In this document: positions 1 to 18,408 of the stretch, piece by piece
How the letters are laid out: each line of letters opens with the position of its first letter
Position numbering within the stretch: the first letter of the stretch is position 1
Virus record (IMG/VR): IMGVR_UViG_2731957842_000007
Location: 1-18,628 of that record
DNA from: a virus
Lineage: Duplodnaviria; Heunggongvirae; Uroviricota; Caudoviricetes
Reading direction: 5' to 3' (one strand)
Length of the DNA stretch: 18,628 nt
Position numbers and translations under genes: made by a program
Notes under the pieces: generated by a model
What the model was told of the DNA's origin: nothing
Databases searched by the model: none
Seen by the model: only the letters and a program-made list of their open reading frames with translations

Positions 1-933
1 ATGGACAACGACAAAATTGATCAACACAGCGACGAAATTGAAGTTGAGAGCGAAGAAAAAGAGCGCGGCAAAAAAATAGAAATAGATGAAGACCGACTCC
101 CCTCCCGGGCGATGGCAATTCATGAGCATATCCGCCAGGATGGTGAAAAAGAGCTGGAACGCGACGCAATGGCGCTACTGTGGTCAGCCATTGCGGCGGG
201 TCTGTCGATGGGCGCTTCGTTACTGGCAAAAGGGATATTTCAAGTCGAACTGGAAGGTGTGCCGGGCAGCTTCTTGCTGGAGAATCTCGGTTATACCTTT
301 GGTTTTATTATCGTCATTATGGCCCGCCAGCAATTATTTACCGAAAATACCGTGACTGCGGTACTACCCGTCATGCAAAAACCGACAATGAGCAACGTCG
401 GCTTACTTATACGGTTATGGGGCGTCGTGCTGCTGGGTAATATTCTCGGGACAGGTATTGCGGCGTGGGCATTTGAATATATGCCTATCTTCAATGAAGA
501 AACTCGCGATGCATTTGTCAAAATCGGCATGGATGTGATGAAGAACACCCCCAGCGAGATGTTTGCCAACGCGATCATTTCCGGCTGGCTGATCGCCACT
601 ATGGTTTGGATGTTTCCTGCAGCGGGTGCGGCAAAGATTGTGGTGATTATATTGATGACCTGGCTTATTGCCCTGGGTGACACCACCCATATCGTGGTCG
701 GTTCTGTTGAAATCCTCTATCTGGTGTTTAACGGTACGCTGCACTGGAGCGATTTCATCTGGCCCTTCGCACTACCTACTTTAGCGGGGAACATCTGCGG
801 CGGCACCTTTATCTTCGCGTTAATGAGTCATGCACAGATTCGTAACGACATGAGCAATAAGCGTAAAGCAGAAGCACGCCAAAAAGCAGAACGTGCGGAA
901 AACATTAAGAAAAATTATAAAAACCCGGCATAA
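1..933 (+). CDS. yfdC: Formate/nitrite transporter (FNT) family inner membrane protein, chromosomal flank
   Basis: Complete 310 aa ORF starting at base 1; hydrophobic multi-pass protein recognised as the FNT-family protein that lies upstream of argW in E. coli. Stop TAA at 931-933. Confidence 0.8.
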   Translation: MDNDKIDQHSDEIEVESEEKERGKKIEIDEDRLPSRAMAIHEHIRQDGEKELERDAMALLWSAIAAGLSMGASLLAKGIFQVELEGVPGSFLLENLGYTFGFIIVIMARQQLFTENTVTAVLPVMQKPTMSNVGLLIRLWGVVLLGNILGTGIAAWAFEYMPIFNEETRDAFVKIGMDVMKNTPSEMFANAIISGWLIATMVWMFPAAGAAKIVVIILMTWLIALGDTTHIVVGSVEILYLVFNGTLHWSDFIWPFALPTLAGNICGGTFIFALMSHAQIRNDMSNKRKAEARQKAERAENIKKNYKNPA

Positions 934-968
934 ATGGCGAGGGTTTAAGCAATCGAGCGGCAGCGTAC

Positions 969-997
969 TTACCCCGCACTCCATTAGCGGGTATACT
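969..997 (+). promoter_or_regulatory. Candidate argW promoter: TATACT -10 hexamer at 992-997 followed by a GC-rich discriminator (GCCGC), weak -35-like TTACCC at 969-974
   Basis: -10-like hexamer lies about 11 nt upstream of the mature tRNA 5' end; the GC-rich discriminator is typical of stable-RNA promoters. Read by eye only. Confidence 0.3.
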
Positions 998-1008
998 CAT
1001 GCCGCATT

Positions 1009-1083
1009 GTCCTCTTAGTTAAATGGATATAACGAGCCCCTCCTAAGGGCTAATTGCAGGTTCGATTCCTGCAGGGGACACCA
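1009..1083 (+). tRNA. argW: tRNA-Arg (anticodon CCU), 75 nt with encoded CCA end
   Basis: Cloverleaf readable in sequence: acceptor stem GTCCTCT/AGGGGAC, anticodon loop CTCCTAA (anticodon CCT), T-arm GCAGG-TTCGATT-CCTGC, 3' CCA. An integrase gene follows 160 bp downstream. Confidence 0.9.
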
Positions 1084-1178
1084 TTTATCAGTTCGCTCTA
1101 ATCCGTATCAGTCCGCAAAATCCCCTGAATATCAAGCCTTCCGTAGATTCACAGTTCGTCATGGTTCGCGTCAGATCG

Positions 1179-1208
1179 TTGACAGCCGCACTCCATGACG
1201 GGTAAAAA
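1179..1208 (+). promoter_or_regulatory. Candidate integrase promoter: TTGACA (1179-1184), 18 bp spacer, TAAAAA (1203-1208)
   Basis: Perfect -35 consensus hexamer with an A/T-rich -10-like hexamer at suitable spacing, 37 bp upstream of the int ATG and within the expected attL arm. Confidence 0.3.
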
Positions 1209-1221
1209 GTGGATAAAATAA

Positions 1222-1245
1222 TTTTACCCACCGGATTTTTACCCA
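1222..1245 (+). repeat. Two direct copies of TTTTACCCA (1222-1230 and 1237-1245), 15 bp apart; the second overlaps the integrase ATG
   Basis: Exact 9 bp direct repeat read in sequence; position between the promoter-like element and the int start suggests recombinase or excisionase binding sites. Confidence 0.4.
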
Positions 1246-2402
1246 TGCTCACCGTTAAGCAGATTGAAGCAGCAAAGCCGAAAGAAAAACCATACCGCCT
1301 TCTCGATGGTAATGGCCTGTACCTTTATGTCCCTGTGTCAGGGAAAAAGGTATGGCAGCTTCGCTACAAGATTGACGGTAAGGAGAAAATCCTGACCGTC
1401 GGAAAATATCCGCTTATGACTTTGCAGGAGGCAAGGGATAAAGCATGGACCGCGAGGAAAGACATCTCGGTTGGCATCGATCCGGTAAAAGCGAAAAAGG
1501 CTTCGTCTAACAACAATTCCTTTAGCGCCATTTACAAGGAATGGTACGAGCACAAGAAGCAAGTCTGGTCAGTAGGCTATGCAACTGAACTTGCCAAAAT
1601 GTTTGATGACGACATTTTACCTATCATCGGCGGCCTTGAAATTCAGGATATTGAGCCTATGCAACTGCTGGAAGTAATCCGCAGGTTTGAAGATCGCGGT
1701 GCAATGGAGCGAGCCAACAAAGCACGCAGAAGATGCGGCGAGGTTTTCCGTTACGCTATTGTCACTGGTAGGGCTAAATATAACCCGGCACCTGACCTTG
1801 CTGACGCCATGAAAGGATACCGCAAGAAGAACTTCCCGTTTCTTCCTGCAGACCAGATCCCTGCATTCAACAAAGCACTGGCAACATTTTCAGGAAGCAT
1901 CGTATCGCTCATTGCGACTAAAGTTTTGCGCTACACAGCACTAAGAACGAAAGAGCTTCGCTCTATGCTATGGAAGAACGTCGATTTTGAAAACAGGATT
2001 ATCACTATCGACGCCAGTGTGATGAAGGGACGCAAAATTCATGTGGTTCCTATGTCAGACCAGGTGGTTGAACTTCTCACTACGCTAAACTCAATCACCA
2101 AACCAGTATCAGAGTTTGTTTTTGCCGGGCGCAACGATAAGAAGAAGCCAATTTGCGAGAACGCTGTACTGCTTGTGATCAAACAAATCGGCTATGAAGG
2201 TCTGGAAAGCGGTCACGGATTCAGGCATGAATTCAGCACGATTATGAACGAGCACGAATGGCCTGCTGATGCTATTGAAGTGCAACTGGCACATGCCAAC
2301 GGCGGATCTGTGCGCGGGATTTACAACCATGCTCAGTATCTCGATAAGCGCAGAGAAGTGATGCAGTGGTGGGCGGATTGGATTGATGAAAAGGTGGAGT
2401 GA
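1245..2402 (+). CDS. intS: Tyrosine site-specific integrase (phage integrase family), 385 aa
   Basis: Starts MLTVKQIEAAKPKEKPYRLLDGNGLYLYVP; C-terminal catalytic region contains R...HGFRHEF...Y motifs. The ORF-track GTG at 1209 is rejected in favour of the ATG at 1245, which gives the expected 385 aa length for the argW-associated integrase. Confidence 0.9.
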   Translation: MLTVKQIEAAKPKEKPYRLLDGNGLYLYVPVSGKKVWQLRYKIDGKEKILTVGKYPLMTLQEARDKAWTARKDISVGIDPVKAKKASSNNNSFSAIYKEWYEHKKQVWSVGYATELAKMFDDDILPIIGGLEIQDIEPMQLLEVIRRFEDRGAMERANKARRRCGEVFRYAIVTGRAKYNPAPDLADAMKGYRKKNFPFLPADQIPAFNKALATFSGSIVSLIATKVLRYTALRTKELRSMLWKNVDFENRIITIDASVMKGRKIHVVPMSDQVVELLTTLNSITKPVSEFVFAGRNDKKKPICENAVLLVIKQIGYEGLESGHGFRHEFSTIMNEHEWPADAIEVQLAHANGGSVRGIYNHAQYLDKRREVMQWWADWIDEKVE

Positions 2403-2417
2403 TCCACCTTTTCTGTT
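2393..2417. terminator. Bidirectional rho-independent terminator between the convergent int and tailspike genes
   Basis: Stem GGTGGA (2393-2398), loop GTGA, stem TCCACC (2403-2408), followed by TTTTCTGTT on the plus strand and preceded by AAAA (a T-run on the minus strand); overlaps the int stop codon. Confidence 0.5.
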
Positions 2418-2419
2418 AA

Positions 2420-4414
2420 TTATTCAGCCTTAGCAAAAGTGGTCATAGTTGTTCCACTGAAAGTGAATGACCTGTCTGTAAGAGTAACATCCTGAATAGC
2501 AAAGTAATCGCCAACACCAGCGCCATTTACATAAAACTCGAATATCTCAGATGTATTTTCCGGAATAATATTATTAGCAATATAACACGTAGATAAAGAA
2601 CCATTTGTTGATGGTAAAGTTCCAAATAGCGTTGCATCCGATGCAGCATATATCGAACTGCTTAAATAAATATTTATATCAACATTACTCTCATAAGTAA
2701 CAATTAAGTACACCCGGTCGTTAACCTTCCACCCTCTGTCTTTTATCTTAGTATTAAGTGATAGCTTGTTAGAACTAGGGGTCGTTACGGTATTAATGGT
2801 TATTTTTGCTCCTATTGAGTTGTATCTGCTTCTGGTTACTGTATTACCAGTATTGTTCATTGTATAAAGGATTGCTCTGCTTTCTGCAAACGTCCTCATA
2901 TTAATCTTGCCTAAACAATCTCCTTCCATAACTTGTGGGCCAGACACAGTTGCACCAATATAACAATTAGTAAATACAGCATGAGCCCTGTTGTCAGTGC
3001 TTGATGCAAGTAATGAAAGTTTAAAGTTGCCCTGATCTGCAATCCAGCAACTATCAACCTTAACTACAGCATCATTGTCAAGAACAACAAACCTTCCTCC
3101 CTCATTGTAATATCCTACAAAAGCATTTACACCGCTTATTTTTACTACTCCATCTGGAACCGTAAAGATATCGCCTTGTATCGCTTCGCCATAGTACCCG
3201 CCAACAATATTGGTCACTCTGGTATTTAAGTACATGCCATGCCCAATGCCGAACTCAAGGTCACATCCAATTAAGCTTAAACCTTCAATAGGGGAAGTAC
3301 CAGAAGCATAAAAGGCATATTCACCGACCTTATTTGATGCAAATCCACAGTTATTGAACGTTACGCGGTTGTTAGCCCCAGCAAGGTGAACTCCGCGATT
3401 TGGCGCAGGAACAAAAGAACAGCAATCATAGGTATTAAGCCAGTCGTTTATAGTATAGAAGTTCGCCACCACGCCATTGATGAAACGACAATTATGGGTT
3501 CTTCCTAGGTGAACATATTGAATTCGGCAAGCATAGTTGGCGATGTTGTTCCCATCAACTGTAACGTGAGAGATAGATGTGCTACGTCTTATAGAGTCAG
3601 TTTCGTAGTACATGTTGACAACTGTCTCTCCAGTGAACCCACTCCCCGCAATAATGAATGACTTCTCAACGCCATCCCCGAATAGGTCAACAGTGCCTAT
3701 TGTTAAATCAACTGGTGACTTAACATAGTAAGTTCCTGCAGGGACAAACAGCCTCTTTCCTGCCGATAAAGCAACTGCTGCAGCAGCATTAAAGCTAGCT
3801 GAGTTATCTGCCGCTGGATCACCAGTAATGGGGAAAAATTGAGCAACAGAAATATAATCTGCTACCGTCACTTCGTACCATGGCAAAGCAGGAGATGACG
3901 GAAGAGTGCCACTACCACCGGTGTAGATTTTATTATTATACCACCACCAGTTATCAACATTAGATAACACCCCCTCCTGCCACACCCCCCCTAACGAGAA
4001 ATCAAGACCGTAAGAAGTAGCTATCTGACTTAATGATAATGTTGCTCCTCTGTCAGAAGCTAATTCTTGCCTTAATTGGTCAGGGTCATACTTCAGCACA
4101 TTAGGAAAATAGAACTGCTGTGCACCATACGCATCATAAACAGCCATAGAATGGCCTTGCACAGTTACGAACTTGGCAATCTGTCCGTTATATACCGGAT
4201 ATCCAGCAGCGTTAATGATGATTGGTTGCGAAACAGGAACGTGAGAGCCGTCTTCGTTCTCCACATAAACCTGAATCTGGTTTTCAGGATTTACAGGGTC
4301 AGTGTCAATTTTACCGATATAAATTTTGCCATTGGCTACGGCTTTAAAAGAACGAGCCATAGTGAAGAGTTGCGAAGGCATGCTTACCACAACATTTGCG
4401 GTGATATCTGACAT
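2420..4414 (-). CDS. Tailspike protein: P22-like N-terminal head-binding domain fused to a divergent C-terminal receptor-binding domain (probable glycan depolymerase)
   Basis: N-terminus [60 protein letters not shown] matches the conserved head-binding domain of P22 gp9-type tailspikes; the remainder has no P22 gp9 similarity I can see. Start placed at ATG 4414 (GGAG 9 nt upstream) rather than the ORF-track start at 4462. Confidence 0.85.
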
Positions 4415-4439
4415 TTCATTGCTCCAGACGAATGATATG

Positions 4440-4462
4440 ATGCAACCATGATGTGGTTGCAT
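4440..4462. promoter_or_regulatory. Palindromic operator-like site ATGCAACCA-TGATG-TGGTTGCAT in the tailspike/mnt divergent intergenic region
   Basis: 9 bp inverted-repeat arms around a 5 bp spacer; overlaps a TTGCAT -35-like hexamer (4457-4462) oriented towards mnt. Fits a ribbon-helix-helix repressor operator. Confidence 0.45.
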
Positions 4463-4535
4463 ACCGAAATGGTACTATTGAGTATTTATCCAGTAGGTTA
4501 CGATGCCATTCCACCCAACTGGTGAGGCATCAAGG

Positions 4536-4802
4536 ATGTACAGCAAATACGACGAGGCGCAGTTTCACTTGAGACTTCCGCATGAACTCCACGCGAAAAT
4601 TAAACAGCGCGCGAAGATGAATAACAGGTCGCTGAACTCAGAGATAATTGCAGCGATTGAAGAATCATTGGCTAAACAAAGCTCTGCATCCGTTTACATT
4701 GACGATGCAGAGCGTATGGCAGAACAACAATCTGATATGGTTAAGAAAATGGTTTTTGAAACGCTTAAGACCATGTATAGCAATAATAAAAAGGAAACAT
4801 AG
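4536..4802 (+). CDS. mnt: Mnt-like ribbon-helix-helix (Arc/MetJ family) repressor, 88 aa
   Basis: FHLRLPHELHAKIKQRAKMNNRSLNSEIIAAIEESL is a ribbon-helix-helix N-terminal fold; C-terminal DAERMAEQQSDMVKKMVFETLK resembles the P22 Mnt C-terminus as I recall it. ATG at 4536 with GGTGAGG 8 nt upstream; ORF-track start 4503 rejected. Confidence 0.7.
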   Translation: MYSKYDEAQFHLRLPHELHAKIKQRAKMNNRSLNSEIIAAIEESLAKQSSASVYIDDAERMAEQQSDMVKKMVFETLKTMYSNNKKET

Positions 4803-4872
4803 AAATCTAGTTTCCGGCTAAAATGGCATTGCCTTCATGATATCCTGTGAAAAACTAAGGAGAGTTAACCAT

Positions 4873-5358
4873 ATGAAAAAATCACTGTTAATTATCCCGC
4901 TTCTGCTGGTTGGATGCGCAAAAGTAAGTGACTATCAAGCAAGTTGCGAACAACGCTATCAAAAGCTTAGCGATATGGCTAATTGCCTTGATGCCAGAGT
5001 GAAGAACGACTCACGCATGGCATCAGCACCAACACCTAAGCTATATGTCCTTGCTGCAAAGATGCTCGGGCAAGGTGTCGATGAAGGCAAGATAAGTGAC
5101 GCACAGGCAAGACTTGAGCTTCAGAATCTTTATGTTCAATTACAAAGCCAAGAACAAGCCCAACAAATAGCACAAAGCCAAGCATTCCAGCAGGCTTTAT
5201 TGAATTATCAGGCTGTAAACACAATGCAAGCGATCGAGCAAAAAGCGAGACAGCCTGTTATAACTCAACCCTATCCAACACGAGTTGACACTTACACAAA
5301 CTGCAATTCAGGATTTGGAAACACCGTCACATGCAACAGTAGCAGCAACATTAGATAA
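4873..5358 (+). CDS. Predicted lipoprotein with Gln-rich C-terminal region, 161 aa; candidate superinfection-exclusion or moron protein
   Basis: MKKSLLIIPLLLVGC has a signal peptide and lipobox (LVGC); strong RBS AAGGAG 10 nt upstream of ATG 4873; occupies the position where P22-like phages carry sieA/immI genes. Confidence 0.7.
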   Translation: MKKSLLIIPLLLVGCAKVSDYQASCEQRYQKLSDMANCLDARVKNDSRMASAPTPKLYVLAAKMLGQGVDEGKISDAQARLELQNLYVQLQSQEQAQQIAQSQAFQQALLNYQAVNTMQAIEQKARQPVITQPYPTRVDTYTNCNSGFGNTVTCNSSSNIR

Positions 5359-5360
5359 AG

Positions 5361-7475
5361 CTATTCATATTCATTCATACCGCTTAACGAGGCGACAATA
5401 CCAGCTCTCGACAAGCGATTGAATTCATCGCTACCAATAGCATCGCGTATTGCTTTTACGGCGGCTTTATTTGCCATAAATCGGCGTTCCGCCGCCGCTA
5501 ATGCTTCTTTACTTCCGCCAGCTCTTACTGCTTTCGTGGCTTCCTGAACTGCTTTCTCTATCGCATATCGGCCGCTACGAGTGGTGGCAATTTTAGATAC
5601 AGCACCTTTTAACCCGGCGCCAACTAAAGCACCTGCGGCAGCGCCTGCAATGCCACCTCCTGCTCCACCAACAATGGCACCTGATGTTGAGTTGGCAATT
5701 GCATTTAACACTGTTGATGTGATGTTGGATAAACCGGCATCCAGATCGCGTAGTACATTGGCAGTTCTCCCTGTTCTTTCAATATACTGCTGAGGTTTCA
5801 CTGCTGCTCTTGCAAGAGTGCCATATACATCAGCAATTCTTCCGAGTTCTGAGGAATATCTGCTAATGGCTTTTACATTTTGTGGGGTAAGTATCCCTGC
5901 GATATGGTTAATTCCTGCTGCATCAGCTTTGCCACCACGTACACCATGCGAGATAGCATCTTGCAACATTGATGATATAGCAGGAACACGCTCTGATTCT
6001 GGCAGCGCGCGGATCATAGAATGGAATCCAGCAGGACCATTAAGACCTTTAGCTGACGATGCTTGAAGAGATTTTACTCCATTCGTAATCAGTGCATCTG
6101 TTGCCAAATCACGCCCAAAAACAGACTCTGCACTCTCTTGTGCGGACAGCCTCGCTTTAGACAGATCATTAGCTTTTTGCCAGTCATCAAAAAATCCGCC
6201 GTTTTCCGCCATTGTGCGCATATCATCAGTAATTGCCCGACGTATTTCCCCTGCTCTCCTTGCCGCATTTGCCTCTCCGCTACGCTTATATTTTTGCTCC
6301 GCATCAGCAAATTTCGCTCTCCATGCTTTCATGCCATCAAATGTTACTCCACCTTGATTGTTTGCCTGAACAAACTGTTTCATTTCAGGAGTAAGCGGTA
6401 TGCCAGCAGATCGCTCTGCCTGAATAACGGCATTACCATTTAGCATTCTTGCTTTTTGATTTGGCATTGTTGACCGCACGTCATCCCATGCCGCGCGCTC
6501 GGCATCCTTCATCTGATCAAGATTTTGAAGAATCCTTTGTTTTATAGCCGCACTTTTTTCTGATGCCGTTCCAGATGCGGCCCCAAATTCATCAAGGTTT
6601 CGACTTAACTTTGATGATATTTCGTTAAATGCTGCCTGATGGGCGTCCTGAACAATTCCTGGTGTTGATGCCAATGCGCCTTCGGCTTGTGCAATTCCAC
6701 GACTTCCAGATCGCATTCCTGGTGTTAATGCGTTTATATCAATTCCAGCAGACTCAGCCGCTTTTGCTACATCTTCGGACACATTAGCGGCCTGACTGGC
6801 AATTGACTGACGCCCAGCACCTGACTTTGCCATCCTGGAAACATCATTAGCAGAATTCAGTGCTGCACCACCAAGAGCCTGTGAAACCCTTGGCGCAATA
6901 ACGCGCCCGACACCTGAAAGAACGCCTTGAGCACCAATATTGATACCACCGTTAATGGCAGCATTTTGTGCAAAATCACCCTCCTGATTTGCAGCATCAG
7001 CAAGAGAACCTGCAATCATGTTTCCTGCGGAACCGATATCTCCAGCGAGCTTTGCTGGCGCTCCAGCAGCTTTTGCCGCTGTGCCAATTGGCAGGAGATA
7101 CCCACCAATTGTTTCACCGGCTTGCGCATAAGGGTCTGTCGGTCGATCGACTGGACGATAGACATCATCCAAAACCTTGGGGCCACCAAGCCCCTGGCTG
7201 ATTGCATTAATCAGACTTGCGCCACCCTGCAATACGTCAAATGGTATGTTTACCAGACCACGGCCAGCCTGTTCTGCAATTTGCCCTGCGCTTTGACCAC
7301 CAGTGAGCCAGTCAGTGGCTTTTCCTACCAGAGATTGTTCTTCTGGCTGCGATTGGTTTTGAGTGGATTGATCACCAGAAGACAGCATCTGAGCAATGCG
7401 ACGTGCTCCCTCAGTATCGCCGGCAGCATCAGCATTCCTTAACGCCGTCATCAACTGTTCGCGACTATAGGCCAT
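5361..7475 (-). CDS. DNA ejection/transfer protein, P22 gp16-like, 704 aa
   Basis: Third gene of a 7-20-16-like ejection operon on the minus strand; Gly/Ala-rich; start overlaps the stop of the upstream gene. Confidence 0.65.
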
Positions 7476-8749
7476 TACTGCCCTCCGAGATATTTATTAA
7501 TCAGGTCATCATCAGAAAGCTGCTGTTGAGACGGTTGTATGTCCTTCCCGTATTTCTGTTGCATACGTTTCTGAGCCATCTCAGTGGTTTTTATGATTGT
7601 TTTGATGGCTGCTCTGGCTGATTTTTCAGACTGATTTGGGGACAAACTACCAATAGCATCCATTACCTTTTGCCCCTCGGCATTACTTAAAGCCCCCATC
7701 CCTTTCATCTGCTGAATGCCAGATAAGAATCCCTGAGATTTCAGTGTGTCAACCAGAGTTTCTGTATCAGCAGCCTCTGTTCCTGGAATGAATCTACTCG
7801 ATAGTGGGTTTAGGTTTGTTCCGAAATATCCAGTGAATCCCGGGCTATTAAGAACTTTTGTAGCCGTCTCTATCGTTCTGGAAAGATTATCCATTCCAGA
7901 GTTGTACGCATCAGCCTTATCTCGCTTTGCCTGCTCCATAGCTTGCTGATTCTGCAATCTCTTGTCCTGCAATTCAGCAAGTTTTAAGGCATTAGTTTCA
8001 TTTGCGATGAGTCTGTCGTATTTCTTGTCCTCTAATTCCATCCGACGAAGATTGACATTTTGTTGCGCAATATTGTTGCTTGCCCACCCTCTGGCATTTG
8101 TCATGTCATTATTACGGATTGTTTCGTTAATTTTTTGCTGATCCTGCTGGCGACCAACCATCTTATCCTGAACAGCAAACGCCTTTTCTGGTCCAAGCGC
8201 ACCGAGAGACATAGTAGTCAGCATGTGTGATAGCTGCTCTGGATTCTGGATACCTGTCTGAATCATCCAGTCAGCATTAGCACCAACGCGATTTAACCTG
8301 TCCTTGTTGTCAGTAATGAATTTGCTGTAGGCTTCCGGTCCCTGAGAAAGAGCGACGTTAGCCCTCATGGCTAAATCGCCCATATCGTTGCGTTGCTGAT
8401 CATTAAGACCGGAAAACGCCTGTTGTGCCTGTGCAACAAACGCTGGATTTTCCTGGGCAAACTTAAATAGTCCCGATGGATCACCAGAAGCCCATGCATC
8501 AGCATGAACCTTATTGAACGCATTAATCGCTTCCTGTTGCTGTTCCTGCTTATAAATATCAGCAACTCCAGCCAGACCACGTAACGCGGTCAGACCAACG
8601 TTATTTGCACCTGAGCGAGCCAGTTCATTGTTTTCGCGGATCAGACCAAGCGTTGCGTTAATGTCGCTTGCCTTTGGCGCATTCTCATTTTGCGTACCGA
8701 TGCCAGCCAGAAAACCACCAGAATTAATACCCTGTTGCCACGTAGCCAT
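7475..8749 (-). CDS. DNA ejection/transfer protein, P22 gp20-like, 424 aa
   Basis: Position between gp7-like and gp16-like genes; Gln-rich low-complexity segments typical of ejection proteins; GGGG RBS upstream of ATG at 8749. Confidence 0.65.
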
Positions 8750-8759
8750 TGATTACCCC

Positions 8760-9452
8760 TTAAAACAACGAGCCAAGCAGACCAAGACCGCCTCCGATCG
8801 CAGCCCCCCACGGAGTTGATGAACCAATTAATTTCGCAAGTCCGGCCCCAGCAATAGCACCAGACGCACCTCCGCCAATAGCAGATTGCATTGCTGATGG
8901 TCTGTTGGCATTTGCCGCTGCAAGAGCCGCACTTTGCTGCGAAATCTGACTCATGTTGTTGGCATATGTCTGCCCGGCGTTTGCCTGACCTTGCAGTGCG
9001 CCAAGACCAATGTTTGCCAGATTCTGGTAGTTGTTCATCTGACCAGACAGCCACTGCTGACCAAGCGTTGGTGCGATTGTTGCTAACTGATTACCGGTTG
9101 CAGTGGAACCCAATCCACCTGTTGCTTCCGCTGCCGCCAGACTCTGATAGCGAGCCTGACCAGCAAGATCTTTGTACTGCTGAGAGTTGTAATACTGGTT
9201 TAGCGCCTGACCTTGCCCATCCAGAGACGATAAGTTCTCGAGGCTGCCGACATACTTCTCAGCCAGAGGAGTAAACGGTTTCAGGTTGTTCATGATGGTG
9301 TTGAACTGCTGATTTTGCAGGTCTGCGGCATACTTCTGAGCTTCTGCTGCATACTTTGCGCTTTTATCAGAACTGCCACCTTTCCCGCCTTTTTCAGGGC
9401 AATAAGGTTCCTCGCCGCGCAGTTTTCTGCCCAGCTTAAATGCATATAACAT
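8760..9452 (-). CDS. DNA ejection protein, P22 gp7-like, 230 aa
   Basis: MLYAFKLGRKLRGEEPYCPEKGGKGGSSDKSAKYAAEAQKYAADLQNQQFNTIMNNLKPF closely matches the P22 gp7 N-terminus as I recall it; length matches gp7 (229 aa). Confidence 0.8.
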   Translation of the reverse strand: MLYAFKLGRKLRGEEPYCPEKGGKGGSSDKSAKYAAEAQKYAADLQNQQFNTIMNNLKPFTPLAEKYVGSLENLSSLDGQGQALNQYYNSQQYKDLAGQARYQSLAAAEATGGLGSTATGNQLATIAPTLGQQWLSGQMNNYQNLANIGLGALQGQANAGQTYANNMSQISQQSAALAAANANRPSAMQSAIGGGASGAIAGAGLAKLIGSSTPWGAAIGGGLGLLGSLF

Positions 9453-9454
9453 GG

Positions 9455-9913
9455 CTATCTCCCGTGATTCAGGAAGTCGATTAGTTCTTCGCGTGTGGCG
9501 CTGTAAAAAGTCACGTCATCCACGCCTTTAAAGTATTTCTTGATGGTTCCTACACGATTAAGGCCAATCATTGCGCAGTAAATCTGCCCGTGGCGGAATT
9601 TGCGTGCGGCGAACGATGTGACGCACTGAACGGTGGTGTTAGTCAGAATGTATCGCCAGAACGCCAGCCCGATTTCCTTGCTGAAGCCACGAACCTCTGG
9701 CAGGTACATGGCGTGGCAATCGAATGTCAGCGGCTGAATCTCCTGATAGTAAACAATGCCGCCAAACTGACCGTACACGTTAACCTCAAAGTAACGGCAT
9801 TCAGGCTTGTAGTCGTATCCATCACCGTTGTTGCTTCCGGCAATAATGTCAGGGTGATTTCCGACTGCTTCGATCAGGTCGATGTTTCGCGTTGGTTTGA
9901 ACTGAATCATCAC
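9455..9913 (-). CDS. P22 gp14-like protein, 152 aa
   Basis: [35 protein letters not shown] matches gp14 of P22-like phages; sits between the needle and gp7 genes as in P22. Confidence 0.7.
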
Positions 9914-10758
9914 TGCTCCGCGATTATCTTGATGGTTGTGGCAGTAAACGCCGCACCATTCGACTGAATGGTTAACGTGCTGCCATTTGTGGCAAGAAAG
10001 CCGTCTTTATCCACGCTGAAGAACGTAGCTAACAAGATGTTATCGGTTGTTGTCGCCGAGTTGCGACTGCTTACCAGTGTGTCAGGAACAGAGCCGGAAA
10101 AGGTTAGCTGCATTGACCTGTTTGCGGTTCCGCTGGGCCACGTCCCGACAATCGACAGCTTGAAGAACAGGGTTTTGTTCTCGTTGAACACAACCATCTT
10201 GTTGTTAACGGTGTCGAAGAATGGTGCCAACGAGCCGGATGACGGCGTGAGCGTTTTCAGCAGGCTAACAAGGTTGGTCGGCGCTGTCGGGATGGTTACT
10301 GATACGCCAGAGTAAACAACCTCTGACTTCTTGCGTGTGGTTGCATACTCCAGAGCATCAATGCGCGTTTCATGGTCTGAAACCTGCGACTCCAGCGACT
10401 GAAGTCTGGTATCAAGCGACGCAATATCGCTTTCATTCTGAGTGATTCGTGTTTCATGTTCCTGAAGAGTTGATTCTGCCTGACTGATTCGCTCCTCATG
10501 ATTAACAAGCGTTGCTTCCGCAGCAGAAATTCGCTGCTCATGGTCAGCGAGAATCACATCCTGCTCATCGTTCCTGACTTGTGCGTCATAAGCGCCCTGT
10601 CCGGCCTCGTTGGCCTTGTTAGCCACGTTACCAACATCAGTGCCCTGTGCGATAACGTAAAGCAGATACGACTGCGAGAAGATATTGCGTGGAAGGACTG
10701 ATGTGTCGAGCCGTGTAGCCTGAATGATTACCGGCACATTGAGATTCGAATCCGCCAT
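9910..10758 (-). CDS. Tail needle protein, P22 gp26-like, with a divergent C-terminal knob domain, 282 aa
   Basis: N-terminus [43 protein letters not shown] matches the conserved gp26 N-terminal domain; central heptad-like repeats ([43 protein letters not shown]) fit the trimeric coiled-coil needle; C-terminal 120 aa differ from P22. Confidence 0.8.
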
Positions 10759-11552
10759 TACTCAATCCTTATCTGAGCGCCAGACAGAGTGACAGGTGAC
10801 TTCGTGATAACGCGCAATTTGAAACCAATGTTTTTCCTGATGCGCCCTACTTTCTTCCACAAAACGCGTTTGTCGTAAACGAACGGTTCATTCTGCTCAA
10901 TCATCTGCTCACGCCCGTAATTGATGCCGTCAGTGGTTGCAGAGAGGAACAGGCGGTCGGCGTACTGAGCTACGCCAGTGGATGATTCCACCTCCAGATC
11001 GAAGCATCTGGCGTTATCCGCTTTGAACAGTGGAGTAAACAGCAGGTGTTCCTGTTGCTTGTCGTACTGGCTGCTGATATCGAACTGCAATTTCCCGGTC
11101 ACGGACTCCAGCTTATCGCCGCACGTTATCTGATTGCCTTCATAAATGAAGTCGATAGCGCGGTACACATCGTCATACAGGCCTGTTTTCAACACACACC
11201 ATTGCGGACCATTGGCGCTTGAAGATGCGTCGTACACGAGGACGTGGCGCGGAAGGTGGATAATCAGCAGTTCATGCGCATCAAATCGCAGCGATTCCAT
11301 CACACCATCAGCCAGTTCATCAGCAGTGTAGGAGCGAAGAATTTTCTCAATGCTCGCGCTGGCGATTGGTGATACCTGACCTGATCCGATGATGTATACA
11401 GACGGCGCACCCGTTGCCGGATTGCTGATAAACGCATACGAATCAGCGAATGGCGTTTTGCAGTAAGTTCCGGCAATGCCTTTCTGCACCATCAGCGATG
11501 GTTGTGCGACATACAAAGCGGCACCATCGGAGGTCAACATGACAGTAGTCAT
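10758..11552 (-). pseudogene. 5'-truncated gp10-like tail accessory gene (C-terminal 264 codons only), at the deletion junction
   Basis: Occupies the gp10 position upstream of gp26; P22 gp10 is about 470 aa but this ORF is 264 aa. The codon immediately upstream of its ATG (11553-11555 on the minus strand) is TAA, and its first codons are antisense to the start of the N-like gene. Confidence 0.6.
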
Positions 11553-11838
11553 TACATATCTGGCTGACGATAACGCCAGAAATCGCCGCAGAGCACGCAG
11601 ACAGGCTCAACGTGAACAGGCAATGCAAGAGCAGCGACTGGCGCGAAAAATTGCGCTAAAGCTCTCTGGTTGCGTCAGAGCAGATAAAGCAGCATCACTC
11701 GGAAGCCTTCGCTGCAAGAAGGCAGAAGAAGTCGAGCGTAAACAGAATCGTATTTACTACCGCAAGCCACGCAGTGAAATGGGTGTGACTTGCTCAGGCC
11801 GCCAGAAAATGAAATTAGGCAGCAAACCACTTATTTGA
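11539..11838 (+). CDS. N-like transcription antiterminator with an arginine-rich motif, 99 aa
   Basis: MTVVITYLADDNARNRRRARRQAQREQ resembles the N-terminal arginine-rich RNA-binding motifs of lambda N and P22 gp24 (which begins MTVITY). GGAGG 5 nt upstream of ATG 11539; first gene of the rightward operon. ORF-track start 11476 rejected. Confidence 0.55.
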   Translation: MTVVITYLADDNARNRRRARRQAQREQAMQEQRLARKIALKLSGCVRADKAASLGSLRCKKAEEVERKQNRIYYRKPRSEMGVTCSGRQKMKLGSKPLI

Positions 11839-11846
11839 GGTGAGAT

Positions 11847-12317
11847 ATGACAAAATCATGGAGCGTACCTTTTCCTGAATCAGAAACTGAACATGATGGA
11901 ATGCCTGTTTTCTGGAGATTCCAGGCGACAGTTGAAGAAGATGGGATAAAAATATTCGCACTTCAATATATAGCTTTTCATCAGACAGAGCATTATGCAT
12001 GGTTGGTTCCTGCGCATTGGATTGTTAATTTTAAACCAGCACCAAATCAGTGGTTACAGGAATGGAAACAAAGGAGAAATAGATATGCAATTAAGAAAGT
12101 AGCAAAAAATGCAGAAAGATCTTTTGCATTCCCAACGAAGAAACTTGCCATTGAGAGTTTATTGCGCCGGAAGAAATACCATTTAATGAGAATCAAACAA
12201 GATTTGGCTGTTGTATCAACTCTTGTTGATGGGATGAAGAATATTGATACATCAACACCAGATATTGAATATAACTTTGGACACAACCAAGAAACAGAAA
12301 ATTGGGTATTCTACTAG
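11847..12317 (+). CDS. Hypothetical protein, 156 aa, in a visibly A+T-rich segment; moron candidate
   Basis: RBS GAGGTGAG before ATG 11847; Trp- and Lys-rich soluble protein with no family I recognise; followed immediately by a terminator. Confidence 0.6.
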   Translation: MTKSWSVPFPESETEHDGMPVFWRFQATVEEDGIKIFALQYIAFHQTEHYAWLVPAHWIVNFKPAPNQWLQEWKQRRNRYAIKKVAKNAERSFAFPTKKLAIESLLRRKKYHLMRIKQDLAVVSTLVDGMKNIDTSTPDIEYNFGHNQETENWVFY

Positions 12318-12341
12318 GCCGCATAGTCGGCCTTTATTTTT
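12317..12341 (+). terminator. Rho-independent terminator after the 156 aa ORF
   Basis: Stem GGCCG (12317-12321), loop CATAGT, stem CGGCC (12328-12332), followed by TTTATTTTT. Confidence 0.6.
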
Positions 12342-12363
12342 GGCATAAACAACAGAGGCTAAC

Positions 12364-12660
12364 ATGGAATTTAAAGGTACTGAAGGTAAGTGGGAAATAA
12401 TGATGGATGGCGATGAGATTAAAATCATCCAGGCAGACTCACTTGAAAATGGCGCAGGCTGGCGTTCGTATATTGCAATCTGTGAGGAAGTTCAATGTAT
12501 TGAAGATGCCAATCTAATAGCGGCAGCACCTGACCTTCTCGAAGCACTTCAGTTATTACTTAAGCAATCCAAAAATAGAACAACGACAACATATCCAGAA
12601 TGGTATGGAGCTGTTAATAAAGGTCTTGCAGCAATCAGCAAGGCTCTGGGAGGTGAATGA
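12364..12660 (+). CDS. Hypothetical protein, 98 aa
   Basis: ORF with an AGAGG RBS-like element upstream; its stop overlaps the start of the next ORF (ATGA), indicating translational coupling. Confidence 0.5.
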   Translation: MEFKGTEGKWEIMMDGDEIKIIQADSLENGAGWRSYIAICEEVQCIEDANLIAAAPDLLEALQLLLKQSKNRTTTTYPEWYGAVNKGLAAISKALGGE

Positions 12661-12869
12661 TGTGCGAGTTTTATGAAGCAGATATCAAACGCCCAGAAAT
12701 GGCAAGTGATGCGACATTACGTGATTACTTCGCTGCTAAGGCTATGGCAGCAATAGTGCGCAGATGGGACGGACATTCCTTTGGCGGTGGACAGAATTCA
12801 CCACAGTACAAAGAATTAGCAGATGATGCCTACTTTATTGCTGATGCCATGCTCAAAGCTCGCGAATAA
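12657..12869 (+). CDS. Hypothetical protein, 70 aa, translationally coupled to the upstream 98 aa ORF
   Basis: ATGA start/stop overlap at 12657-12660; no recognisable family. Confidence 0.45.
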   Translation: MMCEFYEADIKRPEMASDATLRDYFAAKAMAAIVRRWDGHSFGGGQNSPQYKELADDAYFIADAMLKARE

Positions 12870-12964
12870 GCACTGTGTATTCATTCCAACGAGTGAATAC
12901 ACGGAGCAATGTCGCTCGTAACTAAACAGGAGCCGACTTGTTCTGATTATTGGAAATCTTCTTT

Positions 12965-12992
12965 GCCCTCCAGTGTGAGGGCAATTTTTTTT
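12965..12992 (+). terminator. Rho-independent terminator upstream of the coiled-coil gene
   Basis: Stem GCCCTC (12965-12970), loop CAGTGT, stem GAGGGC (12977-12982), followed by AATTTTTTTTT. Confidence 0.55.
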
Positions 12993-13004
12993 GATGGAGG
13001 ATAT

Positions 13005-13973
13005 ATGAGTGAAGTAACAGATTTAGTTGTTATTGAAAAAGCAAATGCAATGACTGTATTTCAGTCTGCCGACCAGATTGAAGAAATCCTTCAAAAGGTA
13101 GAACGTGAAGTTATGTCCTTTGTGCCTGATATCACAACGGCAAAGGGCAGAAAGGAGGTCGCTTCTCTGGCGTATAAAGTTGCGCAGACGAAAACATATC
13201 TCGATGGTCTTGGCAAAGACCTTGTTGCTGAACTGAAGGAAATTCCAAAGCTAATTGATGCCAACCGCAAGACAGTGCGCGATCGCCTTGATGAACTGAA
13301 AGCCAAGGCACGCCAGCCTCTTACTGATTATGAAGAGGAACAGGCGCGGATTAAAGCTGAAGAAGAAGCTAAGGCAGCAGCTGAAGCTCTCGCAAAGCAA
13401 ATTGAGTCTGACCATGAAATAGCGATTTTGATGGATCGCGAATTTGACCGCCAAAGAGAAGAGGCAAGACTCAAAGCGGAGCAGGAAAAGCGAGAGCATG
13501 AAGAACGCTTAAAAAGAGAAGCTGAAGAGAAAGCCAGAGCTGAAGCCGAAGCAAAGGCAAAAGCCGAAATTGAAGCAGCAGCAAGGCGAGAAGCAGAAGC
13601 TAAGGCCGCAGCGGAACGTGCAGAGCGTGAACGCATTGAAGCCGAGCAACGAGCACAGCGCGAAGCAAAAGAGGCAGCAGAACGAGCTGAAAGAGAAAAG
13701 CAGGCAGCAATTGAAGCAGAACGCAGAAAAGCACAGGAGGAGGCTGAACGAATCCGTCGCGAGGTTGAAGCAAAAGAGCAAGCCAGAATAGCAGAAGAAA
13801 AAAGAATCAAGGAAGAAGAAGAGCGTAGAGCAAAGGATAAAGCTCACCGGAAAGAAGTAAATAACAAAATACTTGCTGACCTTATCAAGGTTGGTGCATC
13901 AGAAGATGTTGCTAAAAATATCATAACAGCCATCGTAAAAGGCGAAGTATTCGCAACAAAAATAACCTACTAA
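13005..13973 (+). CDS. Hypothetical coiled-coil protein with a long Glu/Ala/Lys/Arg-rich repetitive central region, 322 aa
   Basis: ATG 13005 preceded by GGAGG; the ORF-track start 12909 lies upstream of the terminator and is rejected. Central 200 aa are AEAKA/EAERR-type repeats; globular N- and C-terminal segments. Confidence 0.6.
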   Translation: MSEVTDLVVIEKANAMTVFQSADQIEEILQKVEREVMSFVPDITTAKGRKEVASLAYKVAQTKTYLDGLGKDLVAELKEIPKLIDANRKTVRDRLDELKAKARQPLTDYEEEQARIKAEEEAKAAAEALAKQIESDHEIAILMDREFDRQREEARLKAEQEKREHEERLKREAEEKARAEAEAKAKAEIEAAARREAEAKAAAERAERERIEAEQRAQREAKEAAERAEREKQAAIEAERRKAQEEAERIRREVEAKEQARIAEEKRIKEEEERRAKDKAHRKEVNNKILADLIKVGASEDVAKNIITAIVKGEVFATKITY

Positions 13974-13997
13974 TAAAACCAACATAAGGAACCACCC

Positions 13998-14129
13998 ATG
14001 ATTTACGCAATCGCGGGAGGAGCTCGCATGGGTGCCTTCCAACTAAATGAATCTTTACTTGAACGAATCACCCGTAAATTACGTGACGGATGGAAAAGAG
14101 TTGAGGTCTTATTATGCGCAATGAAATAG
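13998..14129 (+). CDS. cIII-like small protein (FtsH protease inhibitor family), 43 aa
   Basis: MIYAIAGG...ESLLERITRKLRDGWKR matches the conserved core of lambda CIII as I recall it; AAGGA RBS upstream; located upstream of erf as in lambdoid PL operons. Confidence 0.5.
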   Translation: MIYAIAGGARMGAFQLNESLLERITRKLRDGWKRVEVLLCAMK

Positions 14130-14266
14130 CCATCAATCACCAGATGCTTCGTGCTGCACAGAACAAAGCAGTAATAGCCAGATTTATTGGTGATTCAAAA
14201 ATGTGGCTTGAAGCAAATAAAGCGATGAAATCAGCTATCAACCTTCCGTGGTATCGCAGGAAATGA
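14114..14266 (+). CDS. Kil-like small protein (putative), 50 aa
   Basis: IARFIGDSKMWLEANKAMK resembles the lambda Kil family from memory; start overlaps the cIII-like ORF, and its stop overlaps the next start. Confidence 0.35.
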   Translation: MRNEIAINHQMLRAAQNKAVIARFIGDSKMWLEANKAMKSAINLPWYRRK

Positions 14267-14421
14267 GTTTCACAGATAACTGGTCAGACGAAGAATTCAT
14301 TCGTCAGATGAAAGAATTAATCGGTAACGAAGGAGATATTCATGTCACTTGCAACCACAGTGAAGGAGAGCAAGTTACAGAGACGCATGTACACGCAGAA
14401 AGCTCTCTGGTATCGCCATAA
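14263..14421 (+). CDS. Hypothetical small protein, 52 aa
   Basis: Chained by ATGA overlap to the upstream small ORF and lying directly upstream of erf; no family recognised. Confidence 0.3.
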   Translation: MSFTDNWSDEEFIRQMKELIGNEGDIHVTCNHSEGEQVTETHVHAESSLVSP

Positions 14422-14522
14422 TGGTGACCGCGAAGGAATGCGGGTATGCCTTAATTTGTCCCGAGTCGAAGTATTAAATCAGCGTTATTTCCTTGGGCCG
14501 TGTCCATTCTGAGAACAATCAT

Positions 14523-15128
14523 ATGAGCAAAGAATTTTACGCAAGACTGGCAGCTATTCAGGAGAATCTGAACGCGCCAAAGAATCAGTACAACTCATTC
14601 GGCAAATATAAATACAGAAGCTGCGAAGATATTCTTGAAGGCGTTAAGCCGTTACTGAATGGTCTGTTTTTATCAATCAGCGATGAAGTTGTGTTGATTG
14701 GTGATCGGTATTACGTGAAAGCCACGGCAACTATTACCGATGGCGAAAACAGTCATACGGCAACTGCTCTTGCACGAGAGGAAGAAAGCAAGAAAGGAAT
14801 GGATTCTGCACAAGTTACTGGAGCTACAAGCTCTTATGCGCGCAAGTATTGCCTCAATGGTTTGTTCGGCATTGATGATGCGAAAGATGCAGATACCGAC
14901 GAACATAAACATCAGCAGAACGCAGCAGCAAAGCAATCAAAACCATCACCTACACCTGAACAGGTTCTAAAAGCATTCACTGACGCAGCAATGCAAAAAA
15001 ACACCGTGGAAGAGCTTAAACAGGCGTTCGCCAAAGCGTGGAAGATGCTCGAAGGAACACCGGAGCAGCACAAAGCGCAGGACGTTTACAACATCAGACG
15101 AGACGAATTAGAAGGAGCTGCTGCTTAA
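14523..15128 (+). CDS. erf: Erf-family single-strand annealing recombinase, 201 aa
   Basis: MSKEFYARLAAIQENLNAPKNQYNSFGKYKYRSCEDILEGVKPLLNGLFLSISDEVVLIGDRYYVKATATITDGENSHTA matches P22 Erf as I recall it. ORF-track TTG start at 14493 rejected in favour of ATG 14523. Confidence 0.85.
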   Translation: MSKEFYARLAAIQENLNAPKNQYNSFGKYKYRSCEDILEGVKPLLNGLFLSISDEVVLIGDRYYVKATATITDGENSHTATALAREEESKKGMDSAQVTGATSSYARKYCLNGLFGIDDAKDADTDEHKHQQNAAAKQSKPSPTPEQVLKAFTDAAMQKNTVEELKQAFAKAWKMLEGTPEQHKAQDVYNIRRDELEGAAA

Positions 15129-15511
15129 TGGCACATTCGATTACTGTAAGACTAAACAAGCCCGCAAGAGAGTTTCAGGCCGGGGAAAATATCGGATTCA
15201 ACATCCGTGCTGGCGTTCAGTATTACGATCGCCAGACAAAAAAGAAAGAATGGACAAACTACAGCGCCGTTGTATTTGCCAAGCCGGGAGCGCAAGCGGA
15301 TTACTACCGTAGTGTTCTTGTTGAAGGTGGCATTGTGGAAATTACCGGAGAAAACATCAGGGTTGATGTTTATCAGGGGCAAAATGGTCAATCAATCACT
15401 CTTGAATTACTGAATGCAAAGATTGGATTTGCAACTTCAGGAAACAGCCAACAGCAGCAAAGTAGCAATCATCAAAATCATCCTGAATACGACGATTCAA
15501 TCCCCTTCTAG
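15128..15511 (+). CDS. SSB-like single-stranded DNA-binding protein with an acidic C-terminal ...DDSIPF tail, 127 aa
   Basis: ATG overlaps the erf stop (TAATG); the C-terminus EYDDSIPF matches the conserved SSB tail motif (DDDIPF); the N-terminal region is compatible with an OB fold. ORF-track start 15038 rejected. Confidence 0.6.
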   Translation: MAHSITVRLNKPAREFQAGENIGFNIRAGVQYYDRQTKKKEWTNYSAVVFAKPGAQADYYRSVLVEGGIVEITGENIRVDVYQGQNGQSITLELLNAKIGFATSGNSQQQQSSNHQNHPEYDDSIPF

Positions 15512-15534
15512 ATTAGCAAAATAAGGATTCCATT

Positions 15535-15828
15535 ATGCCAGCGCCTCTGTATGGTGCGGATGACCCGCGCCGCTGTTCCGGCAATTCCGTATCGGAGGTG
15601 CTGGATAAATTCAGGAAAAACTACGACCTGATAATGTCTCTACCGCAGGAAACGAAAGAGGAAAAGGAATTTCGCCATTGTATATGGCTTGCAGAGAAAG
15701 AAGAACGCGAGCGAATTTACCAGACATCAATCCGCCCATTCCGCAAAGCCACATATACCCACTTCCCTGAAATTGACCCGCGCCTGCGTAATTACCGCTC
15801 ACGCTATGGCGCTATCAGTAATGACTGA
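15535..15828 (+). CDS. Hypothetical protein, 97 aa
   Basis: ORF with an AAGGA RBS-like element upstream of ATG 15535; no family recognised. Confidence 0.45.
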
Positions 15829-15838
15829 GGAATTTACC

Positions 15839-16003
15839 ATGAGAGGACTTGCATACAATCCCGGCATTCTTCCGGCAGAAATGATTATTCGCCAACGCGT
15901 AAAGCCAATGCCATCGAGAGAGGAATTGCTTAAGAGAAATTCTTTTCCATCAGTGAATCAAAACAAATATCTGAATGCGATGTTGCGGAGTGGGAAGAAA
16001 TGA
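15839..16003 (+). CDS. Hypothetical small protein, 54 aa (alternative start at 15821)
   Basis: GAGG 8 nt upstream of ATG 15839; its stop overlaps the next start (ATGA at 16000-16003). The 5' part of the ORF-track ORF 15689..16003 overlaps the upstream gene and is rejected. Confidence 0.3.
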
Positions 16004-16476
16004 AACAAATGTCACTAATTGAGATGGATGGATTCCTGAAAGGTAAATGCATCCCCCGAGATTTAAAGGTTAACGAAACAAACGCTGAATATCTGGTGCG
16101 TAAATTTGCTGAAGCGGAGGCCAAGTGCGCGGAGATGGCAGCGGAAAATGCGGGGCTGAAGTCTGGCGCTATGGACGAAATCAAGGTTATCAACCGTGGA
16201 GGGCAGGCATATTGCGTAAAAGATGGAGTGCAAGTTAATCCCATATATGCAAGAGGGTGGAATGATTATCGCGCAAAGTCTATGCAATCAGACACCCCAG
16301 CCACCGATGCTTTCCTGGCTGAAGTCAGGGCTAAGGCGTTTGATGACCTTTGCGCGGCGTTCGTTAAGCACGCGTCGGTGTCCGGGCTGGACGATGGCGA
16401 CTGCGTTACGGTGAAAGAGGCGACTGACGCCCTGCTGCATTGTGCGGAACAGCTTCACAAGGGAGTGCATTCATGA
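16000..16476 (+). CDS. Hypothetical protein, 158 aa
   Basis: Translationally coupled on both sides (ATGA overlaps at 16000 and 16473); no family recognised. Confidence 0.5.
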
Positions 16477-16706
16477 GCAACCTACTACCATGTCCATTCT
16501 GTGGCGGTGCAGCGCACGTTGCCAGCGAAGCAGATCACCCTGAATATGGCTCTGGCGGTCGATTCTATTTCGTTCGATGCGGTACGTGTCGCGCTCAATC
16601 TGGTAGCAAATATGCAGCGCCTGGAAATGACTGCGCGATTTTTTATTCAGAGGTTAGAGCAGAGTGGAATCAACGAGCAAAGGAGGCGAACAGTGAGCAA
16701 GATTGA
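16473..16706 (+). CDS. Lar-family restriction alleviation-like protein, 77 aa
   Basis: [12 protein letters not shown]...CGTC contains the CPFCG-type Cys motif characteristic of Lar-family small proteins; ATG overlaps the upstream stop. ORF-track start 16440 rejected. Confidence 0.5.
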   Translation: MSNLLPCPFCGGAAHVASEADHPEYGSGGRFYFVRCGTCRAQSGSKYAAPGNDCAIFYSEVRAEWNQRAKEANSEQD

Positions 16707-17268: not shown

Positions 17269-17269
17269 T

Positions 17270-17920: not shown

Positions 17921-17982
17921 CCTGCAACTTGCCGTCAAAGGTGAATAACAATCCTCGCACTCGCGGGGATTTCTTTTATCTG

Positions 17983-18007
17983 AACTCGCTACGGCGAGTT
18001 TTGTTTT
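17983..18007 (+). terminator. Rho-independent terminator
   Basis: Stem AACTCGC (17983-17989), loop TACG, stem GCGAGTT (17994-18000), followed by TTGTTTT. Confidence 0.55.
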
Positions 18008-18019
18008 ATGGAGATGATT

Positions 18020-18319: not shown

Positions 18320-18361
18320 GACGTAACCAATATTCGAATTGAAGAACTGAAAGAACACCAA

Positions 18362-18383
18362 GCCGCCTGATGGCGGTTTTTTA
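18362..18383 (+). terminator. Rho-independent terminator upstream of the excisionase gene
   Basis: Stem GCCGCC (18362-18367), loop TGAT, stem GGCGGT (18372-18377), followed by TTTTTTATT. Confidence 0.6.
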
Positions 18384-18392
18384 TTGCCTGAT

Positions 18393-18408
18393 TTGCAGGT
18401 TCGATTCC
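18393..18408 (+). repeat. 16 bp exact copy of the argW T-arm segment (TTGCAGGTTCGATTCC; identical to 1054-1069)
   Basis: Exact 16/16 direct repeat of tRNA positions 1054-1069; the flanks diverge and the T-stem cannot form, so it is a fragment, not a tRNA. Confidence 0.5.

Follow-up and report, generated by a model that had tools for sequence, protein, structure and literature searches.

Why should a prophage that has lost the means of building heads still carry an intact tailspike gene, and which host glycan would that tailspike recognise? Both questions arise near one end of an 18,628-nt stretch of viral DNA (positions 1 to 18,628 of IMG/VR record IMGVR_UViG_2731957842_000007, here called the window). 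A sequence-only reading of the window had claimed an intact gene at 2420-4414, joining a P22-type head-binding domain to an unrelated receptor-binding domain that might target an uncharacterised polysaccharide, and had raised the question of a host function for it.

A tailspike gene in a defective P22-like prophage

The ORF call and the translation agree on the gene: a single intact ORF fills 2420-4414 exactly, running on the minus strand from an ATG at 4414 to the stop codon at 2420-2422 (Table 1). The protein is identical to WP_001280408.1 of Escherichia coli UMNF18, the two genes lying one synonymous base apart, and matches phrog_7173 ('tail spike protein') with E 6e-193; NCBIfam holds no family for it. 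Copies of the gene are under purifying selection (pN/pS 0.11-0.26, on few substitutions). With a Head_binding domain, a place in the late operon and a central beta-helix, it has every testable attribute of a P22-like tailspike, and we identify it as a previously uncharacterised protein of a P22-like (Lederbergvirus-type) temperate phage.

The prophage spans the window from argW to torI at the window end, with the gene order gp10'-gp26-gp14-gp7-gp20-gp16-orf173-mnt-tailspike-int-argW. The same order occurs in complete form in E. coli ST12468, the tailspike being the last gene of a P22-type late operon and adjoining the attachment site and integrase; the int/argW layout is also alike in UMNF18 and VG48B2. 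The genes arc and ant, present in VG48B2 and ST12468, are absent from the window, and orf173 occupies the position of sieA in ST12468. Genes for coat, portal, scaffold, terminase, lysis, replication and a repressor are all absent from the window prophage, and it cannot make heads, lyse, replicate or repress. This upholds the earlier claim that it is unable to build heads, the head genes being absent between a truncated gp10 and a truncated N-like antiterminator gene. The former covers only positions 212-469 of the PF11134 profile, with homology ending at 11534, and the latter covers positions 51-170 of phrog_271, with homology starting at 11633; past it, the PL-operon genes erf, abc2 and ead/ea22 are kept. 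When the whole window was compared with complete genomes, no match exceeded 73% coverage.

The tailspike gene is flanked by two sequence signals. Downstream, between the convergent tailspike and int genes, a hairpin with an 11-bp stem is a likely bidirectional terminator. Upstream, the 88-bp gap between the tailspike and the divergent mnt-like gene holds a perfect 7-bp inverted repeat (TGCAACC-N7-GGTTGCA, window 4441-4461, minus strand), 27 nt before the ATG, that could serve as an operator or form a hairpin in RNA. Homology to the prophages containing arc and ant stops at 4428, so the repeat belongs to the mnt-tailspike arrangement common to the window and UMNF18.

Table 1. Positions of the tailspike gene, its domains and neighbouring prophage features in the window
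Feature	Position	Strand	Basis or remark
tRNA-Arg(CCT), argW	1009-1083		tRNA call; with the integrase marks the attL end
IntS-type integrase	1209..2402	+	Pfam integrase domains; convergent with tailspike
Hairpin with 11-bp stem	2388..2413	.	Between convergent int and tailspike; terminator-like site
Tailspike CDS	2420..4414	-	664 aa plus stop; ORF call and translation
C-terminal beta-sandwich, residues ~516-664	2423..2869	-	AlphaFold2 strands 518-647, pLDDT >90
Right-handed parallel beta-helix, presumed glycan-binding/depolymerase domain, residues ~185-515	2870..3862	-	
Codons of D385 and E387 (CDxEF) and E410 (YxGE), candidate catalytic residues	3185..3262	-	Family conservation; AlphaFold2 strand positions
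Conserved adaptor module, residues 114-180	3875..4075	-	Short helical neck, then small Trp-rich beta domain
P22/Sf6-type head-binding (virion anchor) domain, residues 1-113	4076..4414	-	PF09008 Head_binding
Ribosome-binding site GGAG	4422..4425	-	8 nt upstream of the ATG; read from sequence
Mnt/Arc-type repressor gene	4503..4802	+	PF03869 and PF11423; divergent from tailspike
orf173 (173 aa), intact ORF	4837-5358	+	phrog_6067; between mnt and gp16
gp16	5361-7475	-	Pfam and PHROG
gp20	7475-8749	-	Pfam and PHROG
gp7	8760-9452	-	Pfam and PHROG
gp14	9455-9913	-	Pfam and PHROG
Sf6-type tail needle gp26	9910-10758	-	Pfam and PHROG
Truncated gp10 (C-terminal half) and deletion junction to truncated N-like antiterminator gene	10758..11633	.	
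PL-operon ORF (354 aa), intact	12909-13973	+	phrog_1376/21365; annotated elsewhere as TolA-like or coiled-coil

Anchor, beta-helix and C-terminal domain

Residues 1-113 match PF09008 over its full length (profile positions 1-113 of 113; E 2.8e-67; 224.5 bits vs. a cutoff of 24), as expected from the head-binding domain that the sequence-only reading had proposed. The near-identity to P22 gp9 that it reported for the first 110 residues does not stand: identity is 85/112 (76%) to P22 gp9, and 104/113 (92%) to Sf6 gp14. Judged by these values the anchor is of P22 type, in its Sf6/HK620 flavour, and it would dock the trimer onto the tail hub. In comparisons with PDB sequences the match to P22 gp9 ends at about residue 120, which agrees with the earlier remark that no similarity to that protein extends past the N-terminus.

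The beta-helix had been guessed from amino acid composition, and structure prediction, Pfam and Foldseek now agree on it. PF12708 (Pect-lyase_RHGA_epim) scores 37.1 bits at residues 194-311, above its curated cutoff of 27. An AlphaFold2 monomer model, for which 73 sequences were aligned, reaches pLDDT >90 over almost all of residues 180-664; short strands recur in it at regular intervals, as in a parallel beta-helix, and a beta-sandwich follows at the end. The head-binding part was poorly modelled because few such sequences were in the alignment. Foldseek against the PDB returned CBA120 TSP4 (E 5.5e-13), Depo32, K2-2 TSP, CBA120 TSP2 and the Sf6, P22 and HK620 tailspikes, so that the suggested comparison with known tailspike depolymerases gives matches at the level of fold only, with 12-18% identity. 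The last ~150 residues match CBM29 modules (E ~1e-4, TM 0.5-0.55 on target). In the mechanism that we propose, residues ~185-515 would bind a host surface polysaccharide and most likely cleave it, and residues ~516-664 form a C-terminal beta-sandwich.

Three acidic residues are suggestive as active-site candidates: D385, E387 and E410 are D/E in 90%, 91% and 97% of 68 family members, and lie on adjacent predicted strands (385-389 and 407-412). Further conserved acidic positions in these relatives are D273, D499 and D647. We regard it as very improbable that the beta-helix only binds its glycan, or modifies it (e.g., by deacetylation), without depolymerising it. Such a role would be compatible with candidate residues that were placed by strand position and not by catalytic geometry, but the conservation of all three on adjacent strands and the predominance of enzymes among the structural neighbours argue for cleavage, as does the fact, established for P22, Sf6 and HK620, that P22-like virions must cleave their way past the O-antigen before they arrive at the membrane.

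Neither the PDB nor a set of 50,697 phage records contained a close relative of the receptor-binding domain, let alone a characterised tailspike nearly identical to it. By tblastn, the C-terminal 544 residues had only a 27% partial match in those records, to a tail protein of phage Bas96, and no characterised homologue exceeded ~30% identity. In a representative library of 1.84 billion proteins, 116 are related to the receptor-binding part at E<=1e-3, and 19 of them at E<=1e-30, the sole one above 50% identity being P0005 (~57-58%); its own 90% cluster contains 64 sequences on 32 contigs, and every named one is from E. coli. Receptor-binding subtypes have been delimited at >=30% amino acid identity over the receptor-binding domain (PMC10408124). 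Identity to Sf6 gp14, P22 gp9 and the HK620 tailspike lies below that value (by BLAST; 12-18% in structural alignments), and on this basis the domain is a new subtype of a well-known kind. A colanic-acid specificity, indicated by a match to phrog_8280, was rejected: the match vanishes once the head-binding domain is removed, after which only phrog_7173 stays.

A conserved module between anchor and receptor-binding domain

Two details of the sequence-only reading gave way in the alignments, namely that everything after about residue 110 is one domain and that the swap joint lies simply at that point. Residues 114-180 form a separate and highly conserved module (~65 residues) that is nearly invariant in proteins differing at both ends, and that is present in P0005-P0028. 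At least four types of anchor are joined to it (Head_binding, phiV10-type, PF18668 Tail_spike_N and PF03906 T7-fibre), P0005 carries it without a Pfam-recognised anchor, and two unrelated C-terminal kinds follow it: family A, to which the window tailspike belongs, and family B (P0016-P0026). At the DNA level, matches to the tailspike genes of other E. coli strains end at nucleotide 521 (residue 174), and the match to the tailspike gene of strain ETEC4090 begins at nucleotide 363 (residue 121). With breakpoints thus at ~residue 121 and at ~174-180, and the module between them, both of its edges act as recombination joints.

Modelled separately (pLDDT 73), the module shows a beta unit of five strands together with its helical neck. 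It has no Pfam family, a search up to E 10 with the module and with the last 146 residues having returned nothing meaningful, and its sole tblastn match in the 50,697 phage records, at 49%, is in Erwinia phage MIF8. Residues 114-180 would act as a portable link that joins anchors to receptor-binding domains. It is possible, though we would not count on it, that the module is an undescribed portable domain, a universal joint through which at least four anchor types exchange receptor-binding cassettes, and that it may also bind carbohydrate via exposed tryptophans. If so, its occurrence on two C-terminal domains, unrelated to each other and each restricted to O141 genomes (see below), would reflect a shared first-contact function and not common descent alone. 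The module also provides a concrete, testable recombination joint in temperate phages; conserved flanking motifs have been described for lytic genera only (PMC10408124).

The gene for P0005 lies at L012:8001-10058, on a 47-kb Logan contig (ERR11010922) that also has replication genes, following a tape-measure gene and three unannotated genes. Its place beside a tape-measure gene in a phage-like contig indicates that the cassette occurs in a long-tailed phage as well.

Association with serogroup O141

The full receptor-binding DNA was found in 7 of 5,426 complete E. coli genomes and the O141 wzy gene in 14 of them. Five genomes have both, namely ST12468, VG48B2, P13-6 (O141:H4), ETEC1716 and ETEC4090 (Fisher p ~1e-12, a value possibly inflated by clonal relatedness among the three porcine ETEC O141 strains). 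These five O141 carriers represent four genomic contexts, so that more than a single clone with a single insertion is involved. The gene lies at sbcB-dacD in ST12468, whose O-antigen cluster is annotated as O141, in a prophage at ybhC-ybhB in P13-6, and in a prophage at argW in VG48B2 (O141). In ETEC4090 the cassette from residue ~121 onward is fused to a Uetakevirus (phiV10/TL-2011b-type) anchor in a phiV10-type prophage.

The ETEC4090 tailspike (WP_230905452.1) is the closest counterpart on a foreign anchor: from ~121 to the end its DNA is 98.8% identical, and its host is likewise O141, whereas its anchor is of phiV10/TL-2011b type (78-82% identity) and not Head_binding. The sequence-only reading had called the window gene a module swap, and rightly so: a P22-type anchor is joined there to an unrelated beta-helix, and the same cassette on a phiV10-type anchor is direct evidence of module swapping. 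At L008:16652-16786, ETEC4090 also retains the 3' end of a P22-type integrase gene, which over ~140 nt is identical to what follows the tailspike gene in the window; this fragment is a scar of the cassette transfer.

Tailspike specificity has been assigned elsewhere on the grounds that serogroup stays conserved across transfers between phage genera, the C-terminal domain tracking serogroup and the anchor tracking phage genus (Pas et al. 2023, PMC10408124). Here O141 is the serogroup of five of the seven carriers, and it was kept on transfer to the phiV10-type anchor of ETEC4090. We make a putative but well-founded assignment to O141 on this host association, which points away from the uncharacterised polysaccharide first proposed as target and towards the O141 O-antigen, whose structure has been published (Farnback et al. 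1998, cited in the review of E. coli O-antigens PMC7685785). A literature search found no O141-specific tailspike by title or abstract, and the 14 serogroups to which PMC10408124 assigns such proteins do not include O141, a term missing from its main text.

The two remaining carriers, ET245 and UMNF18 (O147), likely acquired the prophage first and switched O-antigen later, an order that we infer from their close ties to O141 strains. ET245 has HisA/F/H/IE identical to those of ST12468 and the prophage at the same position, together with a different, IS1-flanked O cluster. UMNF18 has a heavily decayed prophage at argW, the site used in O141 strain VG48B2, and its tailspike DNA is 99.7% identical (megablast) to that of O141:H4 strain P13-6. 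In both non-O141 carriers wzzB is broken, by an internal stop in UMNF18 (L006:6431-7408) and by an IS1 insertion in ET245 (L007:20215-21969); in ET245 an IS1 beside galF stands ahead of the O cluster as well.

The link is to strains, not to a purified glycan, so the tailspike might instead recognise another glycan travelling with O141 strains, such as a K-type capsule or a variant O-acetylated by a prophage acyltransferase. K85 antigens are classically paired with porcine O141. The family-B C-terminal domain, which follows the same adaptor module, likewise occurs in O141 genomes only, so that a cause other than the beta-helix could underlie the association, and three strains carry both families, which would make sense if their glycans or linkages differ. 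Acyltransferase genes moreover adjoin the tailspike/int remnants of two prophages, in P13-6 and 2017.04.03CC. Against this, the O141 carriers have varied origins (human blood, a farm environment in Switzerland, French and Belgian pigs), a diversity that makes a shared capsule type less likely than the O cluster that is seen directly, and O-antigen is the typical target of P22-like and phiV10-like phages with such an anchor (PMC10408124). We therefore consider a different glycan unlikely, and retain the O141 O-antigen as the favoured substrate.

The acyltransferase-family genes lie just past the tailspike/int remnant (P13-6, L009:24067-25182; 2017.04.03CC, L011:7423-8522), the position where Sf6 carries its O-antigen acetylase. 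They are missing from the window, and may bring about seroconversion by acting on O141.

Porcine oedema disease and post-weaning diarrhoea count O141 among their classical serogroups, and pigs or swine were the source of 6 of the 13 O141 strains among the complete genomes, four of these six being named ETEC. If validated, an O141 tailspike could be used for serogroup typing, in engineered tailocins or phages, and for O-antigen stripping; the O104:H4 prophage tailspike of PMC3303846 is a precedent for such use.

Why the gene is intact

Related prophages have lost their head genes through four different, non-nested deletions, each sparing the attL-proximal tail and injection genes: the junctions join N' to gp10' in the window, cro' to gp7' in UMNF18, a PL-operon gene to coat' in VG48B2, and terminase' to needle' in P13-6. 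Neighbouring genes have been hit as well, int by a frameshift in UMNF18 and an internal stop in P13-6, and gp16 by a frameshift in UMNF18 and an IS2 insertion in P13-6. The receptor-binding part differs by only 0-1 nucleotides among the window, UMNF18 and P13-6. In ST12468 the gene is 98.6% identical, and comes last in a P22-like prophage that is apparently complete and free of pseudogenes.

A promoter scan of 2300-5400 found fewer sites than in shuffled controls, and no sigma-70-like site on the minus strand upstream of the tailspike; the Q/late-promoter and antiterminator region has been deleted from the window prophage. The window copy is thus probably not expressed.

Could the tailspike have been domesticated, that is, kept for the benefit of the bacterium, for instance to trim its own or its competitors' O-antigen or to arm another particle? 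Its ORF is intact after each of at least four non-nested head-gene deletions, while int and gp16 beside it were inactivated in UMNF18 and P13-6. This pattern fits selection, but is equally well accounted for by the end position of the gene, the youth of the remnants and the small number of inactivating hits. A gene at the extreme attL end is seldom reached by central deletions, and by our estimate about two inactivating hits over ~8 kb would miss a 2-kb gene about half the time. The copies are so nearly identical that their intactness is uninformative, and a family-B tailspike has in fact been cut by an IS3 in 2017.04.03CC. The host function that had been raised for the gene is further disfavoured by the near-identical gene in the apparently complete ST12468 phage and by the lack of a promoter-like site with the late-promoter region gone, and the difference of a single synonymous base between window and UMNF18 means that decay has had no time to act. 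Recent decay explains the intact tailspike better than a host function, and we rate domestication as quite unlikely. Under recent decay, the deletion between gp10 and N would have stranded the window copy not long ago.

We hold it to be probable, taking all parts together, that the protein is a four-part tailspike (anchor, adaptor module, beta-helix and beta-sandwich), that it recognises and cleaves the O141 O-antigen, and that it persists in the window as part of a recently stranded prophage remnant.

Comparison with known tailspikes

The adaptor module is the sole feature of this protein that goes beyond textbook tailspike modularity; otherwise it is a textbook case. Sf6 gp14, an endorhamnosidase (PDB 2vbe, 7sg7), has the same plan of anchor, neck, beta-helix and C-terminal domain, and its gene adjoins an argW-type integrase. 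Past residue 113, however, there is no significant BLAST identity to it except for a weak 172-residue stretch over the first helix rungs (Sf6 gp14 161-338 vs. tailspike 188-359, E 1.2e-3), and the structural match is at the level of fold only (Foldseek E 4.7e-7, 13% identity). Sf6 gp14 also lacks the Trp-rich adaptor module, and its glycan is the S. flexneri O-antigen. P22 gp9, likewise an endorhamnosidase (PDB 2xc1, 1lkt), shares the beta-helix plan, in which the window protein would also be a trimer, and the late-operon place after gp16 and immI; it differs in having no sequence similarity after ~120 (Foldseek E 1.4e-6, TM ~0.19) and no adaptor module.

Other structural neighbours are more distant, with CBA120 TSP2/TSP4, Klebsiella Depo32, K2-2 TSP, Geobacillus virus E2 ORF18 and AlgE4/RbmB-type enzymes showing 10-19% identity only. 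Their substrates and mechanisms differ (hydrolases, lyases and epimerases among them), and they are no guide to specificity. The tail spike proteins of Enterobacter hormaechei (P0007-P0015, whose anchors are PF18668 or PF03906) are homologous throughout the beta-helix and C-terminal domain at ~29% identity, a level at which glycan specificity is presumably different; P0005 is likewise homologous throughout, at 57%. These proteins and P0005 differ from the window tailspike in anchor, host and phage morphotype, yet all of them match its adaptor module nearly residue for residue.
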